In this document: positions 2,167-22,750 of the stretch, in pieces
Layout of the letters: every line of letters starts with the position of its first letter
Position numbering within the stretch: the first letter of the stretch is position 1
Origin: Candidatus Aenigmatarchaeota archaeon
GTDB lineage: Archaea > Aenigmatarchaeota > Aenigmatarchaeia > JACPZZ01
Direction of reading: 5' to 3'
DNA length: 25,280 nt
NCBI GenBank assembly: GCA_043801595.1
Contig: JAZDLW010000031.1
Span: forward strand, 1-25,280
Notes under the pieces: model-generated
Database searches by the model: none
Told to the model about the DNA's origin: nothing
What the model saw: the letters and a program-made list of their open reading frames with translations, nothing else
Position numbers and translations under genes: made by a program

Positions 2167-5100
2167 TTGAATACTGGCACTTTAAGGGGCAAAATTGCGG
2201 TTTTCGGCGCGTTTCTGTTAGTCCTATCCTTCGTTTCGGTCGGAGCTGGCGCATTTACGGTTGATTTCACTTCAAACATTTCCGTGCAGTTCAATTACAA
2301 CATGACAATCTCCGGAAATATCTATAACAACACCGGAGAAAACGTAAACGGTTCGAATTGGTTTGTCAATGCTTCGCTAACGAACGGAAACTTTGTACGC
2401 GCAATGCCTTACATACTTTCCTCAGCGCCGACAAACTCAAGCTTCAATGTCAGCATTAACACGACAGGCATATCAGGCCCGTCGTCCGTTTTCCTACAGA
2501 TTTCAAACGGGACAATGACTGTGGGTAGAACTCTCAAATTCATGGTAACAAACATATCGAGTGCTACAATATCGTTTGTCGGCAAATCGCCGCCATTTTC
2601 GCCCGGTGACTTCATAACAGCGAAAATTGTTGCGAAAAACTGGTCTGGTGTGACTGTTGTCGACCAGACAACAATCAACGGAACTATATACGCTGCCGAT
2701 GGCCCGAAAACGACATGGGGATCTAACTCGTCAAAAACAAACGCGAACGGCGAAACGCTGCTAAACTTCTCAATACCAACGAACGCCGAAGCGGGCAATT
2801 ATATATTGTCAATTGAGGGCAGGGCAGGTTCGATATTCTTCGGAATCGAAAAATATTCGCTGACTGTTATGGCAAAAGACAGTTTTGGCAATATCAAAAA
2901 CGCGTTCGCGCCCGGAAGCGCAGCCACAATCGAATCGAGATTGACTTACACAAACGACACGTCCATTTCAGGCGCTGCAACAACAATCGAAATAATAGAC
3001 CCGACCGGATTGTTGACAAGTTCTTCCGGTTCGTCGTATACTGATGGCCGATTCCAGTACAACTACACAGCAACCGCAACAGGAACTTACAAAGTGCGCG
3101 TACAATCAGGCGGGCAGGGAGCTGCAGGCTCGTTCGCAACGCGCACGATGTCTGCGACAATAGTGCCGAGAGAGGCTGCATCGTTCTTCAGGGAATTCGC
3201 TGGCAAAAAATTGTTCCCGCCAGGACAGAATGTCTCGTTAACGATATTGCCGACAAACGTAAGCAGCGGAGAGATACTGCCGTTAGGATCGACGTCGTAT
3301 GACTGCTCGCAAAACAATTTTACAATACTCGATACGTATTTCGCAAACAACCAGACATCGCTAAACAGCACTATCGGTAAGTGGCTTTCATTTGTGCCGA
3401 CAACGCACACGGGCGTTGCGGTGTGCGGAATAGAATTCAATCTTACATCGAACTATGTCGGGCTGTTCGGAATAAAAATTAATGTCACCACAGCGGATAA
3501 TTCCAATTCTATAGCACAGGGATACTTCTCAATACAAAGATATGGTTTATCGGTTGAACCGTCTTCCGACTATGGTGATAACGAATTCATGTCCATGTTG
3601 TTGCCCGGCGCGAATGCGACGTTCAAGCTCACTGCATTTGACATATCCAGCGGCGAAAATCTTAACGGCTTTAATATAACGAATGCCACTGTGCAGAAAA
3701 TAACACTGTTATCAACATCCGGTCTGGGGGCAACGGAAATAACGGACGTAACAAACAGCTTCTCGTTCGTCGATGCCGCTACTGCTGATGGCAACGAACC
3801 GTACCTTGTCGGAGGACCTATACCGTCGATTGCGGGTCCGCAGATAATCACAATAATGGCGTCTGTGAACGGAACGAATAACATAACCGCCGATGCTTTA
3901 TATCTCGGCAAATACCTGATGGGCTACGGAACGCCTTCCGGAAACAGATACGGCGGGGAGAGCGGCGGTGGAGGAGGCAAGCAGGAAGGCGGAATGGGAG
4001 AAGGTATGTCGATAGACTGCTCTGGAACAACAGAATTCAATGTAATGGTTTTCGATGCAAAGACGTTCATGCCCGCGAGCTCGGTGTCATTTTTATCCAT
4101 TTTATCTGCGAGAGACGAGTTGACGGGAAGCGATATAAGTTCGTGTTTGGCAGTAACAAAAGGCCTGACCAGTTCGTCGGGTCAGGCAAAGATAAACGTA
4201 ACTTTCTCGAGCGCATGCACATACGCCGGGTTCAATTTCGTGCAGTTCAACGTGTCGTTCCAGGATAAAACAGACCAAATACCCGCAGGTTTCAGCTGTG
4301 TATCAATGTCGATGACGCCGAACACCTACAACAACTTGGGCCAGCAGAGATTTTCATTTTCGCCGACCGCGAACATAACAATGCTCGTGCAGAATGTTTC
4401 ATACACCGCGAACTCGTCGCGCATTGTGGTCGGCGGAAACGCCAGCGTTGTAACCCTGATAAACATGAATCCGTCAACAGGCGCAACTGTGCTAACGCCG
4501 ATTAGCCTGATCAATGTTTCTTTGGTATTGCACAACGGAAACTACGAGGGCAACATCACGATAAACCCGATGCAGTTCATGTCTGCAGGAAAACCGCTAA
4601 CAAAATGGCCCACAGGCTTCTTTGAGCTGCGAGTAAAAGTGTGCGACAACGCATCGACAGCGACAAAAGGCTATTCGGGCGCTTGCGGAACGTCATCAAA
4701 CTCGGGATTCAAGATCGCGCCGTTTGATATGTGGACAGACTGGTGGATGAGCGCGAATGCACAGGCCACGTTCCAGCCTGGACAAGCTGTTGTAAATATC
4801 AGTTTATTTGCGGACCTATGGCCGTGGAATGTCGCGAATGTGTCAAGAATCGTTGTCGAACTTATGAACTTTGAGACTGGCAAGAAAACAAATACGACAT
4901 CCGTAATGTGGCTGAACGGAACGCCGGCATTTGATCCTTATTACGCGGGGTTCGGAATTCCCGAACCGTCCAGCACAATTGAAAATATAACATTCAACTT
5001 CACAATACCCGTTACAATTAAATCAGGAAATTACGGTGGAATAATAACAGCTACGAACGGCGGCAGTGGTGAAACAACCGACGAGATGGTACAGGTCACG

Positions 5101-6972
5101 ATCAAAGGGCTGACTATCGGAGTTCCGCTAAAGGAAAACTGGAACGCGCCGAACGGGCATTGCTGGCCTACAAGCTATTACATCCAATTTTGGAATTTCA
5201 CAGCACCGAACGGCATGCCGCTTGGCAACATGCACGTACAACAAGGCACAACAGACGGGTGGACATACCAAAACTGGACTCACATAAACAACACATATCT
5301 TGGAATGAATGCGGCTGTAGCGGATAATTCTATGATCTGCACAGGACTCACAGTAGCAACGCTTAGCGACATCGACAATTCGGCGTCAACAAACTACACA
5401 GGCATAAACATAATGGCTGTGTCGAATGAAACGAACATCTTTGTTTTCATCGGCAACAGATCAAGTGTTCCAGCAAACGGTTTGATAACCGCGGAAAATT
5501 GGAACATAACAGGAATAACACGGCTGAATAACACAAACACTATACCGTTGACCGGTTATGAAAAGACCTATCTTTGGACAGCAGACGGCGCATCGTTCAT
5601 AAGGTTCGTCAATGTGACAACGCTCACGCCGTGCAATGAAGGGTCTGGACAGGGTTGCACAGTAATAACTAACTTTGCGTTTGCAGGTGGCGCCAAGATC
5701 AGGGAACTTATTCGAATGCCGTTTGTCGCATTCAGGGGAAGCGGAACAGCCGGTGCTGCTAATGGCGCCACGCCGCTTGCGAAGTACTGGTTCAATATCA
5801 CAGATGTTGCTGAGATGAACACGGAAGGGTTCGGAATAAAGTCGACTCTGCCTGCTAACTCTACGGACTTTGTTGTGAATTTCACTGGTTGGACAGATTT
5901 CACAGGAAACCTGACAGATGCTAATGGGTTGGCGTTCGTTCCGCTAAACGTAACGAAGAGCGGAAGGTTCATGGCGTTCTGGAAAGTCAATTCCACGCCA
6001 GTTGAAAAATCTTCGTTCAAAAACTCAGTGAACTTCAATGTGCGCTCATTTAATTCGTATGGCAATTATGTGCAATTATTGCCGGCAACAACGCACAGAA
6101 TAACATTGTACGCGAACCCGACGACGTTCATGACAGCTGTTGGAAATAATGCCGGTTCGGGTTTCAGTGAAGCTGTGGCGCCTACAATTTTCTATTCTGG
6201 AAACTTCACCGAAACCGCCGGAAACGAACTTGTTAGGGACGGTGTGATTGAGACGTTCTATTTTGTGATATCCAACTCAACGCCGATGAACGGCGCTGCG
6301 TATTACCGAGGAAACCTGACAAGGATGTACATTGACGATGATTCTAACATGACTGATAACTCGCAATGCTCTGCCTCGGAAAACGCAAACAACCAGAACC
6401 AGAATGAAACATCAAACCCGAACTGCCTGGGTTCTTCGGGCAAGGTTTTCAATTATCCGACAAAGATGATCGAATCAACGAGCAGCAACAAACAATTCTC
6501 ATTCGGAGAAAACCTACGACTCGGGATGACTGACTGGTGGTTCAACTCCACACACGCAATACTGAACTTTTACGAGGCGAACCCGTCAATAGACTGGGCA
6601 ACCGTAAACTCGATAACGCAGCGCTTCGGATTGCGCGTTTGCGCGTCGACATTCGCGAACAGTGCGATGAACGCTACGTTCATACTGAAGTATAACAACT
6701 GGATGAACGGCGAGGTTTCCGCGAACGTAACCGCATACAACATAACGCACAACATCGCGGTTAACGCGCCCAGCAACATGTCCGGATCGATATACGATGG
6801 TTGCCTGTTAACAGAAGTGTTGCCGCAGAAAGGAACATGGACGCTGGGAAGGAACGAAATATCAGGAACAACCTACGAGATCGATAACAACGGCGTTGCA
6901 ACAGGAACCCAGGAAGATTTGTTCGCCGGACCGATCGAATATCTTAGCGGTGGAAGCAAGAACTTTGGATGA
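2167..6972 (+). CDS. Very large secreted surface glycoprotein (Ig/MG2-like beta domains; S-layer or adhesin-like)
   Basis: 1601 aa; N-terminal signal peptide; very many N-x-S/T sequons; rich in Asn/Thr/Ser/Gly; MG2-like segments (FSPGD...NFSIPTNAEAGNYILSI); no C-terminal TM. TTG start uncertain. Confidence 0.75.
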   Translation: MNTGTLRGKIAVFGAFLLVLSFVSVGAGAFTVDFTSNISVQFNYNMTISGNIYNNTGENVNGSNWFVNASLTNGNFVRAMPYILSSAPTNSSFNVSINTTGISGPSSVFLQISNGTMTVGRTLKFMVTNISSATISFVGKSPPFSPGDFITAKIVAKNWSGVTVVDQTTINGTIYAADGPKTTWGSNSSKTNANGETLLNFSIPTNAEAGNYILSIEGRAGSIFFGIEKYSLTVMAKDSFGNIKNAFAPGSAATIESRLTYTNDTSISGAATTIEIIDPTGLLTSSSGSSYTDGRFQYNYTATATGTYKVRVQSGGQGAAGSFATRTMSATIVPREAASFFREFAGKKLFPPGQNVSLTILPTNVSSGEILPLGSTSYDCSQNNFTILDTYFANNQTSLNSTIGKWLSFVPTTHTGVAVCGIEFNLTSNYVGLFGIKINVTTADNSNSIAQGYFSIQRYGLSVEPSSDYGDNEFMSMLLPGANATFKLTAFDISSGENLNGFNITNATVQKITLLSTSGLGATEITDVTNSFSFVDAATADGNEPYLVGGPIPSIAGPQIITIMASVNGTNNITADALYLGKYLMGYGTPSGNRYGGESGGGGGKQEGGMGEGMSIDCSGTTEFNVMVFDAKTFMPASSVSFLSILSARDELTGSDISSCLAVTKGLTSSSGQAKINVTFSSACTYAGFNFVQFNVSFQDKTDQIPAGFSCVSMSMTPNTYNNLGQQRFSFSPTANITMLVQNVSYTANSSRIVVGGNASVVTLINMNPSTGATVLTPISLINVSLVLHNGNYEGNITINPMQFMSAGKPLTKWPTGFFELRVKVCDNASTATKGYSGACGTSSNSGFKIAPFDMWTDWWMSANAQATFQPGQAVVNISLFADLWPWNVANVSRIVVELMNFETGKKTNTTSVMWLNGTPAFDPYYAGFGIPEPSSTIENITFNFTIPVTIKSGNYGGIITATNGGSGETTDEMVQVTIKGLTIGVPLKENWNAPNGHCWPTSYYIQFWNFTAPNGMPLGNMHVQQGTTDGWTYQNWTHINNTYLGMNAAVADNSMICTGLTVATLSDIDNSASTNYTGINIMAVSNETNIFVFIGNRSSVPANGLITAENWNITGITRLNNTNTIPLTGYEKTYLWTADGASFIRFVNVTTLTPCNEGSGQGCTVITNFAFAGGAKIRELIRMPFVAFRGSGTAGAANGATPLAKYWFNITDVAEMNTEGFGIKSTLPANSTDFVVNFTGWTDFTGNLTDANGLAFVPLNVTKSGRFMAFWKVNSTPVEKSSFKNSVNFNVRSFNSYGNYVQLLPATTHRITLYANPTTFMTAVGNNAGSGFSEAVAPTIFYSGNFTETAGNELVRDGVIETFYFVISNSTPMNGAAYYRGNLTRMYIDDDSNMTDNSQCSASENANNQNQNETSNPNCLGSSGKVFNYPTKMIESTSSNKQFSFGENLRLGMTDWWFNSTHAILNFYEANPSIDWATVNSITQRFGLRVCASTFANSAMNATFILKYNNWMNGEVSANVTAYNITHNIAVNAPSNMSGSIYDGCLLTEVLPQKGTWTLGRNEISGTTYEIDNNGVATGTQEDLFAGPIEYLSGGSKNFG

Positions 6973-6980
6973 ATGATTGA

Positions 6981-8477
6981 ATGAGAAAAATAGTATTATC
7001 ATTGATTATCGGCATGTTGATGCTGACGTCCGGCGCTTTAGCGGCGACGGTTACAGTAAACGACCCGTCTTTCGATTCGACGACAGCGGATGCCGGAACA
7101 ACGAGAACAATAAGCGTTACGATGTCGACTGATACCGGAACTGCGACAATAAACTCGTTTTCGGTAAGTTCGTCGCCTTCGGGGTTAACAATAGGCTCTG
7201 TTAGTACGCCTTTCACTGTCGGAACATCTGGAGCGACGAAAACCTTCACAATAAGCTCGTCAACTGCGAATACATATTCTTTCACTGTTACGTTGTTAGA
7301 TTCGGGCGGTTCGAGTTACAGCAGCAGCGCCTCGACAATCGAATACGTCAACCCGTCGAGCCTGACGCTCACTGTTGTTGAAGAGTCTTTGTCAACGGTT
7401 TACGATGGCAACAACACCGGAATAGCGATAAATGTTGAGAATGCGCTCGCGACTTCGCAGACTAGGAATCTCACGCTCTATCAGAACAAATCAAACACTT
7501 TCGTTGTTAACACTTCGCTGGGAAGCGATCCTGCTGCGCAAACATTGTCGCTGGCGGCGGGGCAAACGAAATCCGTTGTTTGGAACATAACGATCGGTTC
7601 GTTCGACGGCACAGGCCACGCGATAATAAGGCTCGGCGACACGACATCGTCGAAAGTTTTCACGCTGACAAAGGGGACGACAACTACAACAGGGTCGTCC
7701 GCTACAACAACGACATCGAGCACAGGAAGCGGTTCTTCCGCAACGACAACGTCCACGACCACAACAACCGTAAATACGGGACACGAAATACAAAAAATCG
7801 TGCAGGATATCGTGCAGAGGAAAAACGATGAGATAAAGTCGCTTATAGACAGCAAAGAAGAATTGAAAACTGGTCTCAGACTCGCGCTCGGAAAGAACAT
7901 TTCAGAGGAGGTAAAAGCAATTGTTGCTGCGGCAACGGAAAAAATACAGAAACAGATAAGCGTAAACAGGACCATAGATGTTGACACGATAAACTTGCGG
8001 TCTTCGGTCATTTTAAAAATAAAATTCAACGGGACTGAACAGGTCAACAATTTCATTGTTAAGGACATTGTTCCAAAATCGTTCGCTGCCAGAGCTTCGA
8101 ATATAACGCTGTCGGCTCCGAACGCAATTGTGAACGTAACAAACCCTGATCCGGAATTTTTGTTCACCTATGCGAGCATGCTGCCTGGCGCTGAAAACAC
8201 GATAACGTACAGCGTAAATGAACGCGTATTTACGATACTGGGTGAATACTCTGCGCCGATAATACTCGCTGGTTCGACACAAACTGCGCCGTCGAACACA
8301 ACGCTCACGAACACGTCCTCGACTACTACAACGACCGTGCCTGCTGGCGGAGGCGCGAATAACTCGCTTGTTTTCATTATTGCCATTGTACTGGTACTTG
8401 GCGGCGCGTTCTGGTTCTACATGCAGAACTACGCCAAAAAGAAGCCATGGCAATCTATGGCAAAACAGTCGCGATAA
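6981..8477 (+). CDS. Membrane-anchored surface glycoprotein with Thr/Ser-rich linkers and C-terminal TM
   Basis: Signal peptide, beta-rich domains, poly-Thr linkers, a helical segment, then TM LVFIIAIVLVLGGAFWFY and a basic tail. Starts 8 bp after the previous gene. Confidence 0.8.
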   Translation: MRKIVLSLIIGMLMLTSGALAATVTVNDPSFDSTTADAGTTRTISVTMSTDTGTATINSFSVSSSPSGLTIGSVSTPFTVGTSGATKTFTISSSTANTYSFTVTLLDSGGSSYSSSASTIEYVNPSSLTLTVVEESLSTVYDGNNTGIAINVENALATSQTRNLTLYQNKSNTFVVNTSLGSDPAAQTLSLAAGQTKSVVWNITIGSFDGTGHAIIRLGDTTSSKVFTLTKGTTTTTGSSATTTTSSTGSGSSATTTSTTTTTVNTGHEIQKIVQDIVQRKNDEIKSLIDSKEELKTGLRLALGKNISEEVKAIVAAATEKIQKQISVNRTIDVDTINLRSSVILKIKFNGTEQVNNFIVKDIVPKSFAARASNITLSAPNAIVNVTNPDPEFLFTYASMLPGAENTITYSVNERVFTILGEYSAPIILAGSTQTAPSNTTLTNTSSTTTTTVPAGGGANNSLVFIIAIVLVLGGAFWFYMQNYAKKKPWQSMAKQSR

Positions 8478-13196: not shown

Positions 13197-13315
13197 TTGT
13201 CGACAAGGCTAACAAATCATCAAAAAGATCGTTTTGCCAACGGGTTTTCTGTCGGTTTGTTCCGACAAGTGGCGACAATTGGTCGTGTTTATCGAAGTGT
13301 CGGGTGATGTGTCGG
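13197..13315. repeat. TGTCG(G/A) motif cluster A
   Basis: TTGTCGACAA (13197-13206), TGTCGG-N6-CCGACA (13250-13267), GCGACA, and GTGTCGG at 13297 and 13309. Confidence 0.6.
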
Positions 13316-15257: not shown

Positions 15258-15677
15258 TTAAACGAACTGCACCTCCTTGTCAAGCTGTTCTGCGCGATTC
15301 TGGAGTTTCTCTAAAACTTTATCAGCGTCCTTGCGAATATTTAGTATAATACGAGCGATTTCTCCCTCTGCTAAGCAATATTCGTTCGGAGCCAGCTTGT
15401 TTAACAAACCAGCGTCAATCAGGCGACCGACGTATTTGTAGCAAGTTGAGCGCGGAAGGCCTATGTGTTGCTGTATCTCCTCGATTTTAGCGCTGTTTTT
15501 GGCTTCTTTTTCTATTTTAGACTGGTTGCGGCCAGCTAAAAACATGAATATGTCGGTTATTTTATCGCCTTGCTCGTCCCTGTTGATAAGACCCAATGAA
15601 TTGAGAAGCCAGTTAGCGATCAATCTCGCGTCCTTTGTTTTCGGGACCGGAAGATCGGAAATGGTGATTTTCCGCAT
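15258..15677 (-). CDS. Winged helix-turn-helix transcriptional regulator
   Basis: IEEIQQHIGLPRSTCYKYVGRLIDAGLL HTH; N-terminal WL..SLGL..RD; C-terminal coiled helix. Likely start is the ATG at 15677. Confidence 0.8.
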   Translation of the reverse strand: MRKITISDLPVPKTKDARLIANWLLNSLGLINRDEQGDKITDIFMFLAGRNQSKIEKEAKNSAKIEEIQQHIGLPRSTCYKYVGRLIDAGLLNKLAPNEYCLAEGEIARIILNIRKDADKVLEKLQNRAEQLDKEVQFV

Positions 15678-15860
15678 AATACTCGCAATGTAGATTTGTC
15701 TCGGATGGCTTATATAGGTTAGCAGACGATGAACAACGAAAACGGCGATTTCTGATGCTATTGCGAAAATCGAAGAAAAGTCTCGGAACATATATAAACA
15801 TGGGAAAACTAGCCTTCGCAGCACCAAGCTTCCTGGGTAATTGATACGAAAGAAGCTATG

Positions 15861-16187
15861 TCACAGATTTTGTGGACTTTCCGATCTTTTGGTCCTGTTT
15901 TTCTCAAAATTTGTCATCTTTGTGACCAAGCCTTCAAGGTAGTTTGCGATCTCACGACCATCGTCTGTGAGCTCAATCATCTTAATCCTGCCTGTTTTCT
16001 TGAAATCAACAAGGCCCATTCTCTTGAACTTGTCAAGAAGCTTCACAGTGTGCGAATAAGTACAGTCAACCTCTTTTGCCAATTGCGTGGCATATTTGGG
16101 CGATTTTGCACAAATAAGGAGCCTTGCGGGCTTTTCGTGTAAAAACAAGGTTTCTAAAATGTTGTTTTCCTCGATTTCCTGCTCCAA
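15861..16187 (-). CDS. MarR-like winged-helix DNA-binding protein
   Basis: YATQLAKEVDCTYSHTVKLL..F...GLV.F.K.GR.K.IELT..G; SD-like GGGGGCGTGA before a TTG start. Confidence 0.85.
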   Translation of the reverse strand: MEQEIEENNILETLFLHEKPARLLICAKSPKYATQLAKEVDCTYSHTVKLLDKFKRMGLVDFKKTGRIKMIELTDDGREIANYLEGLVTKMTNFEKNRTKRSESPQNL

Positions 16188-19788: not shown

Positions 19789-19829
19789 TGTCGGATACCG
19801 ACACTTCGACTTGTCGATGTGGACCGACA
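19789..19829. repeat. TGTCG(G/A) motif cluster B at the promoter of the wHTH coiled-coil gene
   Basis: TGTCGG-ATA-CCGACA (19789-19803), TCGACTTGTCGA (19806-19817), CCGACA (19824-19829). Confidence 0.65.
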
Positions 19830-19842
19830 GTTGGCAGTCAAG

Positions 19843-20475
19843 ATGGGCGTAATAGGATATATCAAATCCTTGTTTTACGGCAAAAAACTTACGCCTGCAG
19901 CCGCACAAACACAGCTTGCTCAGCCTGTTGAACCGATTGAACAGAACGTAAAAATGACTCCTTCCGAATTTGAAGAGTTTCTTCGTCAGGGGGGCAACAT
20001 GGACTATGCTATAAACAAGGTCGAGAGTATGGAAGAGCGGATAAAGGCGATTTCCGAACACCCGATCCAGAAAAAGGTCATCGAACACGAACTATTGTCA
20101 GGCATGCTCGAAACCATGAAGGACATGAACACAAAGCTGTCCTATTTACCCGAGATAAACGAGCGCGTTAATTCATTACCAACTCTTGCGGAAACATACT
20201 CGCTGCTCCAAAAAATGACGCCTGGGGCGCCTACTAATGTCCAGAAAGAGCTTGAACAAATGGTCGGAAAGGTCGAATCGCAGCTCGATGAAGCGTATTT
20301 GCTGTTATTAAAGGGAAAGGGAGAGATGACAGCGGAACAGGTCTCGCAGGAGTTTAAAATATCGCGCAACACCGCTTCGGAACGATTAAATAAGTTGTGC
20401 GATCTGGGAAAAACAAAAAAAACCAGGAAAAACAGAAAGGTTTTCTTTACCCTCACTTCCGAAGGCGTGGTTTAA
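19843..20475 (+). CDS. Uncharacterised protein: N-terminal amphipathic helix, coiled-coil, C-terminal winged HTH
   Basis: MGVIGYIKSLF N-terminus; helical heptad-like middle; MTAEQVSQEFKISRNTASERLNKLCDLGK.KK.RK.RKVFF HTH plus wing. ATG at 19843 preferred over GTG at 19819. Confidence 0.8.
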   Translation: MGVIGYIKSLFYGKKLTPAAAQTQLAQPVEPIEQNVKMTPSEFEEFLRQGGNMDYAINKVESMEERIKAISEHPIQKKVIEHELLSGMLETMKDMNTKLSYLPEINERVNSLPTLAETYSLLQKMTPGAPTNVQKELEQMVGKVESQLDEAYLLLLKGKGEMTAEQVSQEFKISRNTASERLNKLCDLGKTKKTRKNRKVFFTLTSEGVV

Positions 20476-20521: not shown

Positions 20522-20788
20522 TTAGGCAACTTCTTCTTCGCTGATTATAACGAAGTCGCCGACCGACTTGACCGAAGAGAACGGTATTAAACGTCGCCCC
20601 TTCTTGTCTTCCTGCAGGTTCAACCCATCTGCGTGTTTAGTCGGGTCGACCATTATCAGGTTCATCAGTTCGCCGGATTCGGTTATGAAGCTGACATCGC
20701 CGACTGTTCCGAATTTTCTTCCGGTTTCCTCGGAAACAACGACTTTACCTACAAGGTTTCTTGCACGTATTCTCTCTTCGCTTGCCAT
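20522..20788 (-). CDS. cdpB: PRC-barrel protein, CdpB-like cell division protein
   Basis: A..L.GK.VV....G...G.V.D......SG.L..L...IPFSSVKSVGDFVII stand-alone PRC barrel; SD GGAGGT. Assignment to CdpB is by family resemblance. Confidence 0.75.
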   Translation of the reverse strand: MASEERIRARNLVGKVVVSEETGRKFGTVGDVSFITESGELMNLIMVDPTKHADGLNLQEDKKGRRLIPFSSVKSVGDFVIISEEEVA

Positions 20789-20850: not shown

Positions 20851-21924
20851 CTAGGTTATTGCTGTTATTGTCCTCACTTTCGGAGAAATTTTGTAAACGA
20901 ATCCTTTGCCGCGTTTTTCCCTTAGTATGCAATCCGTGTCCATCAAGCGCCGCAGGATGTTGTTCACAGACCTCGATGCATGGTCTTCGGACTTGTAGTC
21001 TTCCACGCCGATTTTTGCCGCTATTTCCGACGGGTTCAACAAACCCTGCCCGGATAAAAGTTTCAGTATCTCTTTTTGTTTTTCCGGCAGCGACTCTATG
21101 AAATTCACGCTTGGCGCGCTTATTTCGGGCGGCCTTACGGCATCGGCGGCGCCGGCATCGATGATCTGAATTTTCTTTTCAGCGGCCTCGCGCGTCAGGT
21201 CGTCGCACATTTTCAAGACGTTGCGCGGAAAGCCGCCGGTTTTCTGGTAGATAATGTCGAGCGCTTCTTTTGAAAACGGACCCGTGCCTGTTCCGCCAGC
21301 AAACTCTATCCGCTTCTTTACAAGCGCTTCAACTTCTTCACGTGACAGTGACGTTAACTCGACGCGACTTGTGACCCTGTTCAACAATGTTTCAAGTTTT
21401 TCTTCCAGGACTGTTTCAAGAACCGACAATCCGGCGATCACAACGGAAATATTGTTGACCTGATCGGCAATCGTTCGCAACCACTCCAAGACAGGCAGCG
21501 AAGCCTCGTGACATTCGTCGACCAGAAGAACCATCTTCCTGTTCCTGAGTTTTTTGTTAACGTAGACCGGAAGTTCATACAACGTAACGCGGTCACGTGA
21601 AAGCAATCTGTCGAAAAATGAAGGTCGCAGAACGGATTTGAATATGTGAACGAAATCTTCCGGGTTCTGCGGCGGCTTTGTAATGTACAACACCAGATAA
21701 TCATCTTTAACAGTCTCGATCATCTTTTTCAGGAGCGTTGTTTTGCCTGACCCTGTCGGACCTATCAACAGTGTGACTTTTTCGTTGTTCTGGGCGTTCC
21801 GAACCAATGTTGCCAGCTCCGATGAATAACCTACAAAGAGCTCTGGCATGATCTTCAATGAGAACGGGTTTTCCTTCCAGGATTGGGGCTGGTTAGCGTT
21901 TGCGGTCGTATCAACGATGTTCAC
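20851..21924 (-). CDS. AAA+ ATPase (ExeA/AAA_22-like) with C-terminal winged HTH
   Basis: NPF motif, Walker A GPTGSGKT, Walker B LLVDE, arginine finger LLNRV, sensor GGFPRNV; C-terminal wHTH (LPEKQKEIL..L...NPSEIA...SVNNILRRL...REKRGKGFVY). Confidence 0.88.
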   Translation of the reverse strand: MNIVDTTANANQPQSWKENPFSLKIMPELFVGYSSELATLVRNAQNNEKVTLLIGPTGSGKTTLLKKMIETVKDDYLVLYITKPPQNPEDFVHIFKSVLRPSFFDRLLSRDRVTLYELPVYVNKKLRNRKMVLLVDECHEASLPVLEWLRTIADQVNNISVVIAGLSVLETVLEEKLETLLNRVTSRVELTSLSREEVEALVKKRIEFAGGTGTGPFSKEALDIIYQKTGGFPRNVLKMCDDLTREAAEKKIQIIDAGAADAVRPPEISAPSVNFIESLPEKQKEILKLLSGQGLLNPSEIAAKIGVEDYKSEDHASRSVNNILRRLMDTDCILREKRGKGFVYKISPKVRTITAIT

Positions 21925-22170
21925 GTTACTTCACTTAAGTAATATCACATTCACGTGAATATAAATTCATCGACGTGAAGACACGTGAAGATACGTTACC
22001 TTTAAATATCGGTAACGTGAAGTAACGTAAGGTAACGTGAAGTTAAACACGAGAATTGGGCGGTAAAAGTGGAAACTAGATACTTTCTGGCAATCGAGGT
22101 GGATGATCACGTGAAGGTTCACGTGAAGGAGCTGCAAGATCGCGTGAAGGACTGTGAAGCAGACGTGAAG
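21920..22170. repeat. Iteron-like ACGTGAAG repeat array with roughly 10-bp phasing
   Basis: Exact ACGTGAAG at 21973, 21983, 22015, 22035, 22109, 22121, 22163; variants near 22025, 22142, 22152; inverted copies at 21920-21934 and 21993-22000; palindrome ATTCACGTGAAT at 21949-21960. Confidence 0.92.
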
Positions 22171-22641
22171 CTTGTAGAGCCGGAAAACCTCCATTTTACG
22201 GTCAAATTCCTTGGTAACCTGGATCAAACAACGATAAGACGGGTTATTGACGTATTAACACCCCCTCTGGAGTGTGAATTCACTTCTAAAGTGAGCGTTC
22301 AGGGTATCGGTTCCTTCGGGCCTTCTTCGTCTCCTAGGATAATATGGGCGGGTGTTAGCACCGGAAAACCATACCTTGCCGGGCTTTTTGGGGTAATTTC
22401 CGAGAAAATCAACGATTTAGGCCTAAAAACCGATGAAAAAGAGCAAATTCCCCACATTACCATAGGCCGCGTGAGGTCGGATAAGAATATAAGCAAGCTG
22501 AAAGAAATTATATCAAAGGAAAGTGAGACTTTCTTCGGAGAAACCGAGATAACCGCGATAAAGTTAAAGACAAGCCGCCTTACTCCAAGCGGGCCGGAGT
22601 ACTCTGATGTTCACGTGTTTTTGTTGAAACGAAGACCGTGA
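22069..22641 (+). CDS. thpR: RNA 2',3'-cyclic phosphodiesterase (2H family, LigT/ThpR)
   Basis: R.FLAI, NLHFTVKFLG, PRIIWAGV, PHITIGRV and S.LTPSGP.Y motifs. Confidence 0.94.
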   Translation: METRYFLAIEVDDHVKVHVKELQDRVKDCEADVKLVEPENLHFTVKFLGNLDQTTIRRVIDVLTPPLECEFTSKVSVQGIGSFGPSSSPRIIWAGVSTGKPYLAGLFGVISEKINDLGLKTDEKEQIPHITIGRVRSDKNISKLKEIISKESETFFGETEITAIKLKTSRLTPSGPEYSDVHVFLLKRRP

Positions 22642-22669: not shown

Positions 22670-22750
22670 TGTCGATCTGTCGGCTAGTGTCGGATATATC
22701 GATGACAATTCAAAGTTGGGTGAGACACCTATATTGACTGGAAACCGACA
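22670..22750. repeat. TGTCG(G/A) motif cluster C between convergent thpR and dnaG
   Basis: TGTCGA 22670, TGTCGG 22678, TGTCGG 22688, TATCGA 22697, CCGACA 22745. Confidence 0.6.

Follow-up and report, generated by a model that had tools for sequence, protein, structure and literature searches.

A helically phased repeat array beside an AAA+/winged-helix ATPase gene in Aenigmatarchaeota, possibly a self-regulated nucleoprotein hub near the replication origin

The window analysed here, a whole stretch of 25,280 bp, comes from a member of the Aenigmatarchaeota whose 814 kb assembly is 86% complete. It contains a gene for an AAA+/winged-helix ATPase and, divergent from it, thpR; a lattice of short repeats crosses the 145-bp spacer between the two genes and enters thpR (Table 1). 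Neighbours of array loci include thpR and the genes for a PRC-barrel protein, RadA, RPA and DnaG. The PRC-barrel gene is the most constant neighbour of the ATPase gene, and thpR adjoins it in 63 of the 80 loci compared. Locus statistics throughout are those of the best 80 of the 242 loci found; these loci are kin, some of them near-identical, so that their independence is overstated. A weak match of one neighbouring gene to the Pfam family 'Cmi2_C' was uninformative.

Table 1. Genes, sites and promoter-like elements at the array locus (window coordinates)
Feature	Position	Strand	Remarks
PRC-barrel gene	20522..20788	-	Pfam PF05239; downstream of ATPase gene; in 69 of the best 80 of 242 loci
AAA+/winged-helix ATPase gene	20851..21924	-	357 aa, GTG start; Pfam AAA_22; proposed binder
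thpR	22069..22641	+	RNA 2',3'-cyclic phosphodiesterase / 2'-5' ligase family; TIGR02258 above cut-off
Intergenic half of lattice	21920..22042	.	Centres 21925, 21955, 21975, 21985, 22017, 22037
Degenerate in-phase sites, intergenic half			Centres 21935, 21995, 22027
Coding half of lattice, in thpR	22106..22170	.	Centres 22111, 22123, 22144, 22154, 22165
Palindromic site ATTCACGTGAAT	21949..21960	.
Second TTCACGTGAA	22118-22127		The two copies are all those of TTCACGTGAA in the assembly
TATA-like box, ATPase gene	21960..21965	-	In 20-bp gap between centres 21955 and 21975; presumed promoter element
TATA-like box TTTAAATA	22001..22008	+	Likely of thpR; in gap between centres 21995 and 22017; presumed promoter element
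Outlying site in ATPase gene	21336..21345	-	Codons ~193-195, S-R-E-E
Outlying site in ATPase gene	21593..21602	+	Codons ~108-110
Outlying site in thpR	22610-22617

The array and its conservation

Seven exact copies of ACGTGAAG lie on the forward strand (21973, 21983, 22015, 22035, 22109, 22121 and 22163), accompanied by six one-mismatch or inverted copies (21919, 21929, 21949, 21953, 22117 and 22142), in agreement with an earlier note on this DNA that had reported seven exact and several variant or inverted copies in about 250 bp. Markov models of orders 2 and 4 predict 0.005 exact copies per 250 bp, and the remaining ~813 kb of the assembly contain just 22 more. When sites with at most one mismatch are counted over the whole assembly, the richest 300-bp window holds 13 and the runner-up three; the array is the sole cluster of such density in the assembly, and ranks as the top cluster both here and in two near-whole chromosomes. 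The genome-wide count against a Markov background proposed in the same note revealed a strong local excess of a word that is not evenly frequent. Read on the strand of the ATPase gene, this word is TTCAC(G/A)T, sometimes extended to the palindrome TTCACGTGAA. The 12-bp palindrome and the outlying copies described previously (at 21336, 21593-21600 and 22610, inside both flanking genes) were also located.

Consecutive site centres are spaced by 30, 20, 10, 32, 20, 74, 12, 21, 10 and 11 bp, and the 11 strict centres follow a period of 10.5 bp (R 0.85, p 0.0008 against random placement), which bears out the claimed helical phasing; three degenerate sites occupy further helical turns. In six sister species the sites hold register, the intergenic half is conserved, and the site at 21336..21345 has a counterpart at about +580. 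Two of these species carry a 21-bp insertion, corresponding to two turns, with the phase kept. Since the sister species share the register, an assembly artefact is excluded, and the array is confirmed as a real feature.

Each of the two TATA-like boxes occupies a one-turn gap of the lattice, that of the ATPase gene being conserved in the comparison with sister species, and the GTG start codon of the ATPase falls within a site. The box TTTAAATA had previously been described as bracketed by an inverted pair, ACGTTACC (21993-22000) and GGTAACGT (22011-22018); the arrangement is present, and is better interpreted as a thpR TATA box in a one-turn lattice gap. TATA-like boxes were found in 47 of the best 80 loci, and in 35 of these 47 a site centre lies within -25 to +35 of the box; centres peak at -11 and -21/-22, with none from -9 to +4. 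Predicted cognate sites, recognised by position and covariation, are therefore present at the ATPase's own promoter, where the ATPase probably regulates its own expression.

Within the thpR reading frame, five sites (22109-22170) fall at codons 14, 18, 25, 28 and 32, spelling the peptide DHVKVHVKELQDRVKDCEADVK. Synonymous codon shuffles yield 1.05 expected sites against the five observed in thpR (P 5e-5), and likewise 1.05 against five in the ATPase gene (P 0.0015). Judged from these shuffles, the sites inside thpR are preserved through codon choice.

The ATPase is encoded in 205 of 301 genomes of the phylum, almost always as a single copy, and is a gene that two families, f18 and f19, do without (present in one of 58 and none of 17 genomes). 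A comparison of orthologous loci, suggested in the earlier note, found arrays there as well: 78 of the best 80 loci have at least six TTCAC(G/A) sites in the 1.2 kb upstream, with a median of 12 sites per locus and at least 20 in 20 of the 80, on a background of ~1 per kb. Site density is 6.4 per 250 bp beside the ATPase start versus about 0.2 in flanks. Pair spacings across loci peak at 11, 21-22, 30-33, 42-43, 51-54 and 62-65 bp, giving a period of 10.55 bp that persists to 110 bp (mean cosine 0.58, versus 0.15 in flanks). Coding-sequence sites exceed the codon-shuffle expectation 3.9-fold in the ATPase gene, 3.3-fold in the adjacent thpR and 3.5-fold in other upstream genes, and 1.4-fold in distant genes; conserved sites reach about 650 bp into the ATPase gene and 1.2 kb upstream within other genes.

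A three-site phased pattern was detected in 13 of 22 genomes with the ATPase versus none of 18 f18/f19 genomes without it, and comparison by hand with the positions of the ATPase gene placed 38 of the 41 matches within 1.3 kb upstream of it. Two loci with the canonical recognition helix (L221, in which a stop interrupts the frame, and L224) had no 500-bp bin with four sites. One genome (G271) has two core ATPase copies, both accompanied by an array and separated by 200 kb, on an N-gapped scaffold that may be chimeric; it was given no weight. A five-site phased TTCAC cluster was also seen on a contig without the ATPase (L290:2352-2393, G031:C3), near a small ORF and a tRNA-like stretch.

The ATPase and its recognition helix

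In family models the protein is AAA_22 / ExeA-like, with every named NCBIfam family below its curated cut-off, including the ExeA-like TIGR03015 (E 8e-22). The Orc1 family model PRK00411 gave 19.5 bits against a cut-off of 354, and Cdc6_C (PF09079) matches only the cdc6 gene of the source genome, on contig C11, and not the array ATPase. Against the host Cdc6 the profile-profile probability is 31%, and a quick tree places the ATPase on a separate long branch. Among solved structures, the DNA-acting matches given by a profile search were VchTnsC (E 5.6e-10), MuB (6e-8), RuvB and Orc1, ranked below midasin and Clp ATPases. The AlphaFold model (pLDDT 86, pTM 0.69) found Cdc6/Orc1 as its top Foldseek match (E 2e-14, TM 0.54), and VIA-align gave Z scores of 18.7-19.6 for ORC/Cdc6, 18.2 for MuB and 17.6 for TnsC, with rmsd 8.6-13.4 for full-length matches. 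Model and fold searches thus predict an AAA+ module with a C-terminal winged helix, as in Orc1/Cdc6, and the protein is ExeA/TnsC-like in sequence and Orc1/Cdc6-like in predicted fold. Invariant in 30 of 30 aligned sequences are Walker A and B, R183 (a putative arginine finger), R234 (a putative sensor II) and the helix residues R318, N321 and N322.

Homologues occur in Nanopusillus, Nanobsidianus and Nanobdella aerobiophila, and a metagenome scan for Nanoarchaeales homologues yielded one true locus among 37. Source annotations of the family read 'ExeA', 'T2SS ATPase' or 'thymidine kinase'. No homologue was found in the phage collection searched, and the plasmids searched contained distant ExeA-like matches and two haloarchaeal ones without the array. 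A large group of homologues of 430-540 aa (P0044-P0073), matched in the AAA+ part alone, lacks the wHTH and begins with a long N-terminal extension; TPR families occur in two proteins like these.

The predicted recognition helix spans residues 313-329 of the model and reads R[SA][VIL]NN[IL][LIV] in 79 of the best 80 loci. Paralogue searches in the 301 genomes gave 16 matches, two of them core genes, and a quick tree resolves the paralogues into two sister clades, B and C. In clade B the helix is SRASxAKQLSRL and the word around the promoter G(T/A)GACA, with 9, 7, 6, 7, 5 and 9 copies per 700 bp at six loci of family f11 (flanks also enriched, 3-8) and 3 and 1 at two f27 loci. In clade C the helix is KPTKTITSQLAYL, and AAGTAT counts are 5, 7, 5, 3 and 5 at five loci, with flanks at 0-1.2. 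TTCACR occurs 0-2 times in each of 13 paralogue loci of both clades (one further locus was unparsed), while core loci average 12.7 copies of it and 0.31 and 0.64 of the other two words. The paralogue words were chosen by eye from three loci and the remaining loci counted afterwards; the loci being kin, only three independent clades underlie the covariation. No array was visible at the one Nanopusillus-type locus obtained, whose helix differs again.

Three helices accordingly go with three words, the covariation with the wHTH recognition helix that the earlier note had proposed to look for, and its suggestion of a cooperative-looking platform for the adjacent ATPase is supported, since the array accompanies the gene and the word shifts with the helix. 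Other candidates fail on distribution: a small wHTH protein is encoded near 17 of the best 80 loci and was not found in the source assembly, and a coiled-coil wHTH protein (19819-20475 type) near five of the 80, and both were rejected as binder. Because paralogue clades with other helices carry other words and the array tracks gene and helix, the ATPase very probably binds the array directly. Paralogues distant from the origin also have self-sites that hug the promoter (in G123, ~432 kb versus cdc6 at ~690 kb), so that an array in itself implies no job in the origin region.

Origin, segregation and possible roles

Canonical cdc6 was found in 69 of 70 genomes. In the source genome an ORB-like GTTCCAGTGGAAA and a G-run lie just upstream of it (C11 ~46085-46110), overlapping the end of a 141-aa ORF, and this locus is likely the canonical origin. 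ORB-like elements lie upstream of cdc6 in all three genomes inspected (the source genome, G123 and G167). Synteny with a sister species suggests the contig order C14-C22-C11, which would put the array about 11 kb from the ORB. With cdc6 taken as origin marker the ATPase gene is near the origin: of the 48 genomes with both on one contig, 46 have it at most 35 kb from cdc6 (median 21 kb), these 48 being drawn from 74 genomes chosen for longer contigs and same-contig sampling favouring short distances. In both near-whole chromosomes nine of 242 orthologues are found no more than 35 kb from cdc6, including dnaG, polB, radA and RPA, and the proximity, shared with replication genes, may reflect hitch-hiking.

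The array word, TTCACGT, is no ORB/mORB sequence with a G-string, as the earlier note had observed; the ORB-like element sits beside cdc6. In duplex stability the spacer ranks at the 50th percentile among 261 intergenic regions, a weak test, as the cdc6-upstream control was no less stable. Raw GC/AT skew of G123 and G167 was uninformative. Orientation-corrected skew switches near the cdc6/ATPase region with opposite polarity in the two chromosomes and does not separate the loci; in G167 the switch at 614-625 kb is nearer to cdc6 (628 kb) than to the array (656 kb). Of the three roles the earlier note had offered (origin iterons, a centromere-like site or an autoregulatory operator) the first is the weakest: given a separate cdc6/ORB, probably about 11 kb away, and a spacer that on this weak test is not unusually meltable, the array is probably not the main origin.

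Initiator-fold ATPases whose genes adjoin cognate repeats are known; what differs here is the other word, the one-per-turn lattice crossing coding DNA and the absence of an apparent initiation role. Orc1/Cdc6 with its ORB/mORB repeats (PMC3089459) has the AAA+ plus C-terminal winged-helix plan predicted here and repeats beside its own gene. The array ATPase differs in its distant sequence, its word, the 10.5-bp lattice and the sites in coding sequence, and it coexists with a normal cdc6/ORB locus. Another parallel is the non-initiator Orc1-2 of Sulfolobus, which recognises a hexamer (DDRE) at its own promoter and at others (PMC9738581): both combine an initiator fold and an apparently non-initiating use with a short site at the own promoter. 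However, Orc1-2 belongs to the Orc1 paralogues and controls a regulon, whereas the array ATPase is ExeA/TnsC-like in sequence and has a single large phased array, and the search for a conserved regulon found none.

Profile and structural similarity (Z 17.6-18.2) link the protein to the filament-forming AAA+ ATPases TnsC and MuB, and the ExeA-like match below cut-off links it to ExeA/GspA; it differs from these in its fixed single-copy chromosomal position and cognate sequence-specific array. No transposase was present among the window neighbours examined or the constant neighbours of the best 80 loci, and no secretion genes were seen beside the array ATPase. Bacterial DnaA oligomers extend along arrays of low-affinity sites (PMC4285127). 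The array ATPase, of the initiator clade, would be expected to extend similarly over arrayed weak and strong sites; it differs from DnaA in that no unwinding element was detected, in its wHTH in place of DnaA domain IV, and in its archaeal host. The datA-type titration loci provide a further DnaA-related comparison.

A cluster next to its binder's gene has a precedent in segS beside segAB of Sulfolobales (PMC12139799). As with SegB/segS and ParB/parS, there is one origin-proximal cluster beside the likely binder's gene, in genomes with SMC. The differences are that no ParB was found, no ParA-type gene lies at the locus (ParA-like matches of the source genome are on other contigs, and no SegA-SegB pair adjoins the array), parS flanks are absent, and the protein proposed as binder is an AAA+ ATPase in its own right. 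Bacterial parS, TGTTTCACGTGAAACA, has TTCACGTGAA at its centre, an identical 10-mer core (PMC7022226). None of 126 palindromes was within two mismatches of the 16-bp parS, 124 having 4-6 mismatches and the other two three. ParB_N (PF02195) scored above cut-off in none of 28 ATPase-bearing genomes and PF17762 in none of five, all of them incomplete. With no palindrome near the 16-mer and no ParB found, ParABS was rejected. An SMC hinge was found in 42 of 43 genomes, whether or not they encode the ATPase; SMC and FtsZ are present in f18 and f19, the families that do without it, and neither SMC nor ParA-like proteins are distributed in a complementary fashion to the ATPase, both occurring with and without it. 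A possible centromere-like role fits the position of the array, and the PRC-barrel neighbour hints at division in the light of two PRC-barrel preprints; the Dip/Arco division-site papers concern a GTPase and are unrelated.

The array is tentatively interpreted, with somewhat less than an even chance, as a self-regulated, origin-proximal nucleoprotein hub that is possibly centromere-like. The recognition helix of the ATPase would read TTCAC(G/A) sites, one per helical turn; the protein would coat the lattice as an ATP-dependent oligomer, whose growth along one helix face appears likely, and this coat would throttle the ATPase's own promoter, while the array may organise the origin region in the manner of a centromere and not act as an origin. 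An array of 10-30 sites may be explained by a task at the level of the chromosome, such as to anchor or segregate the origin region, to load SMC, or to signal that this region has been copied. As the ATPase is widely kept and its own locus is its one dense target, it acts either there or off specific DNA. A bolder version, which must be called rather unlikely, is a ParB-free centromere in most Aenigmatarchaeota, where the ATPase would polymerise on the phased array 2-35 kb from oriC, anchor or load SMC, and couple duplication to division through the PRC-barrel protein, its word having converged on parS.

The hub is favoured over a plain operator or titration pad because sites are kept hundreds of bases inside genes, because the origin-proximal cluster is a single one, and because of the segS precedent (PMC12139799). 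On the operator reading, which is somewhat unlikely, the ATPase would repress its own and the thpR promoter, thereby keeping its own amount steady, and work elsewhere, on non-specific DNA or with, for example, the PRC-barrel partner. The placement of both TATA-like boxes in one-turn gaps, the start codon inside a site, the site centres around the box in 35 of 47 loci, the promoter-hugging self-sites of origin-distant paralogues, and Orc1-2 as a non-initiator Orc1-fold protein on its own promoter (PMC9738581) all agree with it; but distal sites, ~650 bp into the ATPase gene and 1.2 kb upstream, exceed the needs of promoter occlusion, as do the 20 of the best 80 loci with at least 20 sites. A second, ORB-independent origin or an oriC enhancer, with the ATPase as alternative initiator or helper loading MCM, is less probable still. 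The predicted fold nearest to Cdc6/Orc1, the single cluster per chromosome amid replication genes, the skew switch in the same general region of both near-whole chromosomes, and the analogy with DnaA growth on low-affinity arrays (PMC4285127) point towards it, though nothing except the fold gives a second origin positive support. Against it stand the near-universal cdc6 with its ORB-like elements, a spacer no more meltable than the median intergenic region on that weak test, an array that crosses a coding sequence in the window, a G167 skew switch closer to cdc6, and the failure of the ATPase in the Orc1 family model.

It is improbable that a regulon including ftsZ and mcm is controlled by the ATPase as a cell-cycle transcription factor, with the array as the strongest, autoregulatory target. 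Satellite clusters do occur upstream of mcm (four sites) and ftsZ (two) in G123, and of ftsZ in G167 (two sites), L348 and L351. However, only two of 38 ftsZ upstream regions scored in ATPase-bearing genomes have at least two sites, compared with one of 19 in genomes without the ATPase, and none of 10 mcm regions does; short upstream sequence or a missing anchor had removed four of 42 ftsZ genes of ATPase-bearing genomes (one of them the source genome's own, at a contig end), one of 20 others and 14 of 24 mcm genes. In a genome-wide scan of three genomes, no other gene of the source assembly (86% complete) had more than two sites in the 250 bp upstream, and the ftsZ and mcm clusters seem sporadic, with no conserved regulon found. 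A different binder (ParB, the small wHTH protein or the coiled-coil wHTH protein at 19819-20475) is very improbable: the 10-mer core matches the centre of parS as given in PMC7022226, while the parS flanks are mismatched, ParB_N is above cut-off in none of the 28 genomes, the wHTH genes accompany few loci, and the word tracks the ATPase helix.

No paper on the array or on this ATPase family in archaea was found in the literature searched, mostly non-subscription, which includes PMC7617429, 10.64898/2026.05.13.725050, PMC13228585 and 10.64898/2026.07.23.738820; nor was any account of chromosome organisation or segregation in these DPANN archaea found there. No ParB was found in the genomes tested. 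A single, phylum-wide origin-proximal array with a candidate binder makes the segregation question testable, and the predicted recognition code of three helices and three words can be tested with one purified protein and short DNA. Even on the dullest reading, what emerges is a family of initiator-like, self-targeting ATPases that had gone unannotated.

Other repeats and genes of the neighbourhood

For a second word, (C/T)CGACA, the three densest 120-bp clusters in the assembly lie in the window, at 19789-19829, 22670-22750 and 13198-13315 (4, 4 and 6 copies), with 13 other places holding three copies. At 19789-19829 it is arranged as two inverted pairs that straddle the beginning of the coiled-coil wHTH gene (19819-20475), and the clusters there and at 22670 are kept in sister species. 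The clusters are likely operators of the coiled-coil wHTH protein. In family f9, a coiled-coil HTH gene in the same position carries two perfect 10-bp TCAACA tandem arrays in frame (L292:6831-6900 and 7148-7215) and a TTCACG cluster at its promoter; its product has no significant BLAST similarity to the coiled-coil wHTH protein of the window.

Clusters of a third word, CTCACA(T), lie beside a small wHTH gene of 104 aa upstream of the array (G123:C1 ~665.9-666.2 kb, L061, L100 and L107), and are probably the small wHTH protein's own operator. Two more wHTH genes of the window (15258-16187; 189 aa, TrmB-like, and 108 aa), beside genes for DUF373, histone, RPA and RadA, are syntenic in a sister species. 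At 2167-8477 the window encodes a pair of secreted-looking, Thr/Asn-rich proteins of 1601 and 498 aa, which are probably surface proteins.
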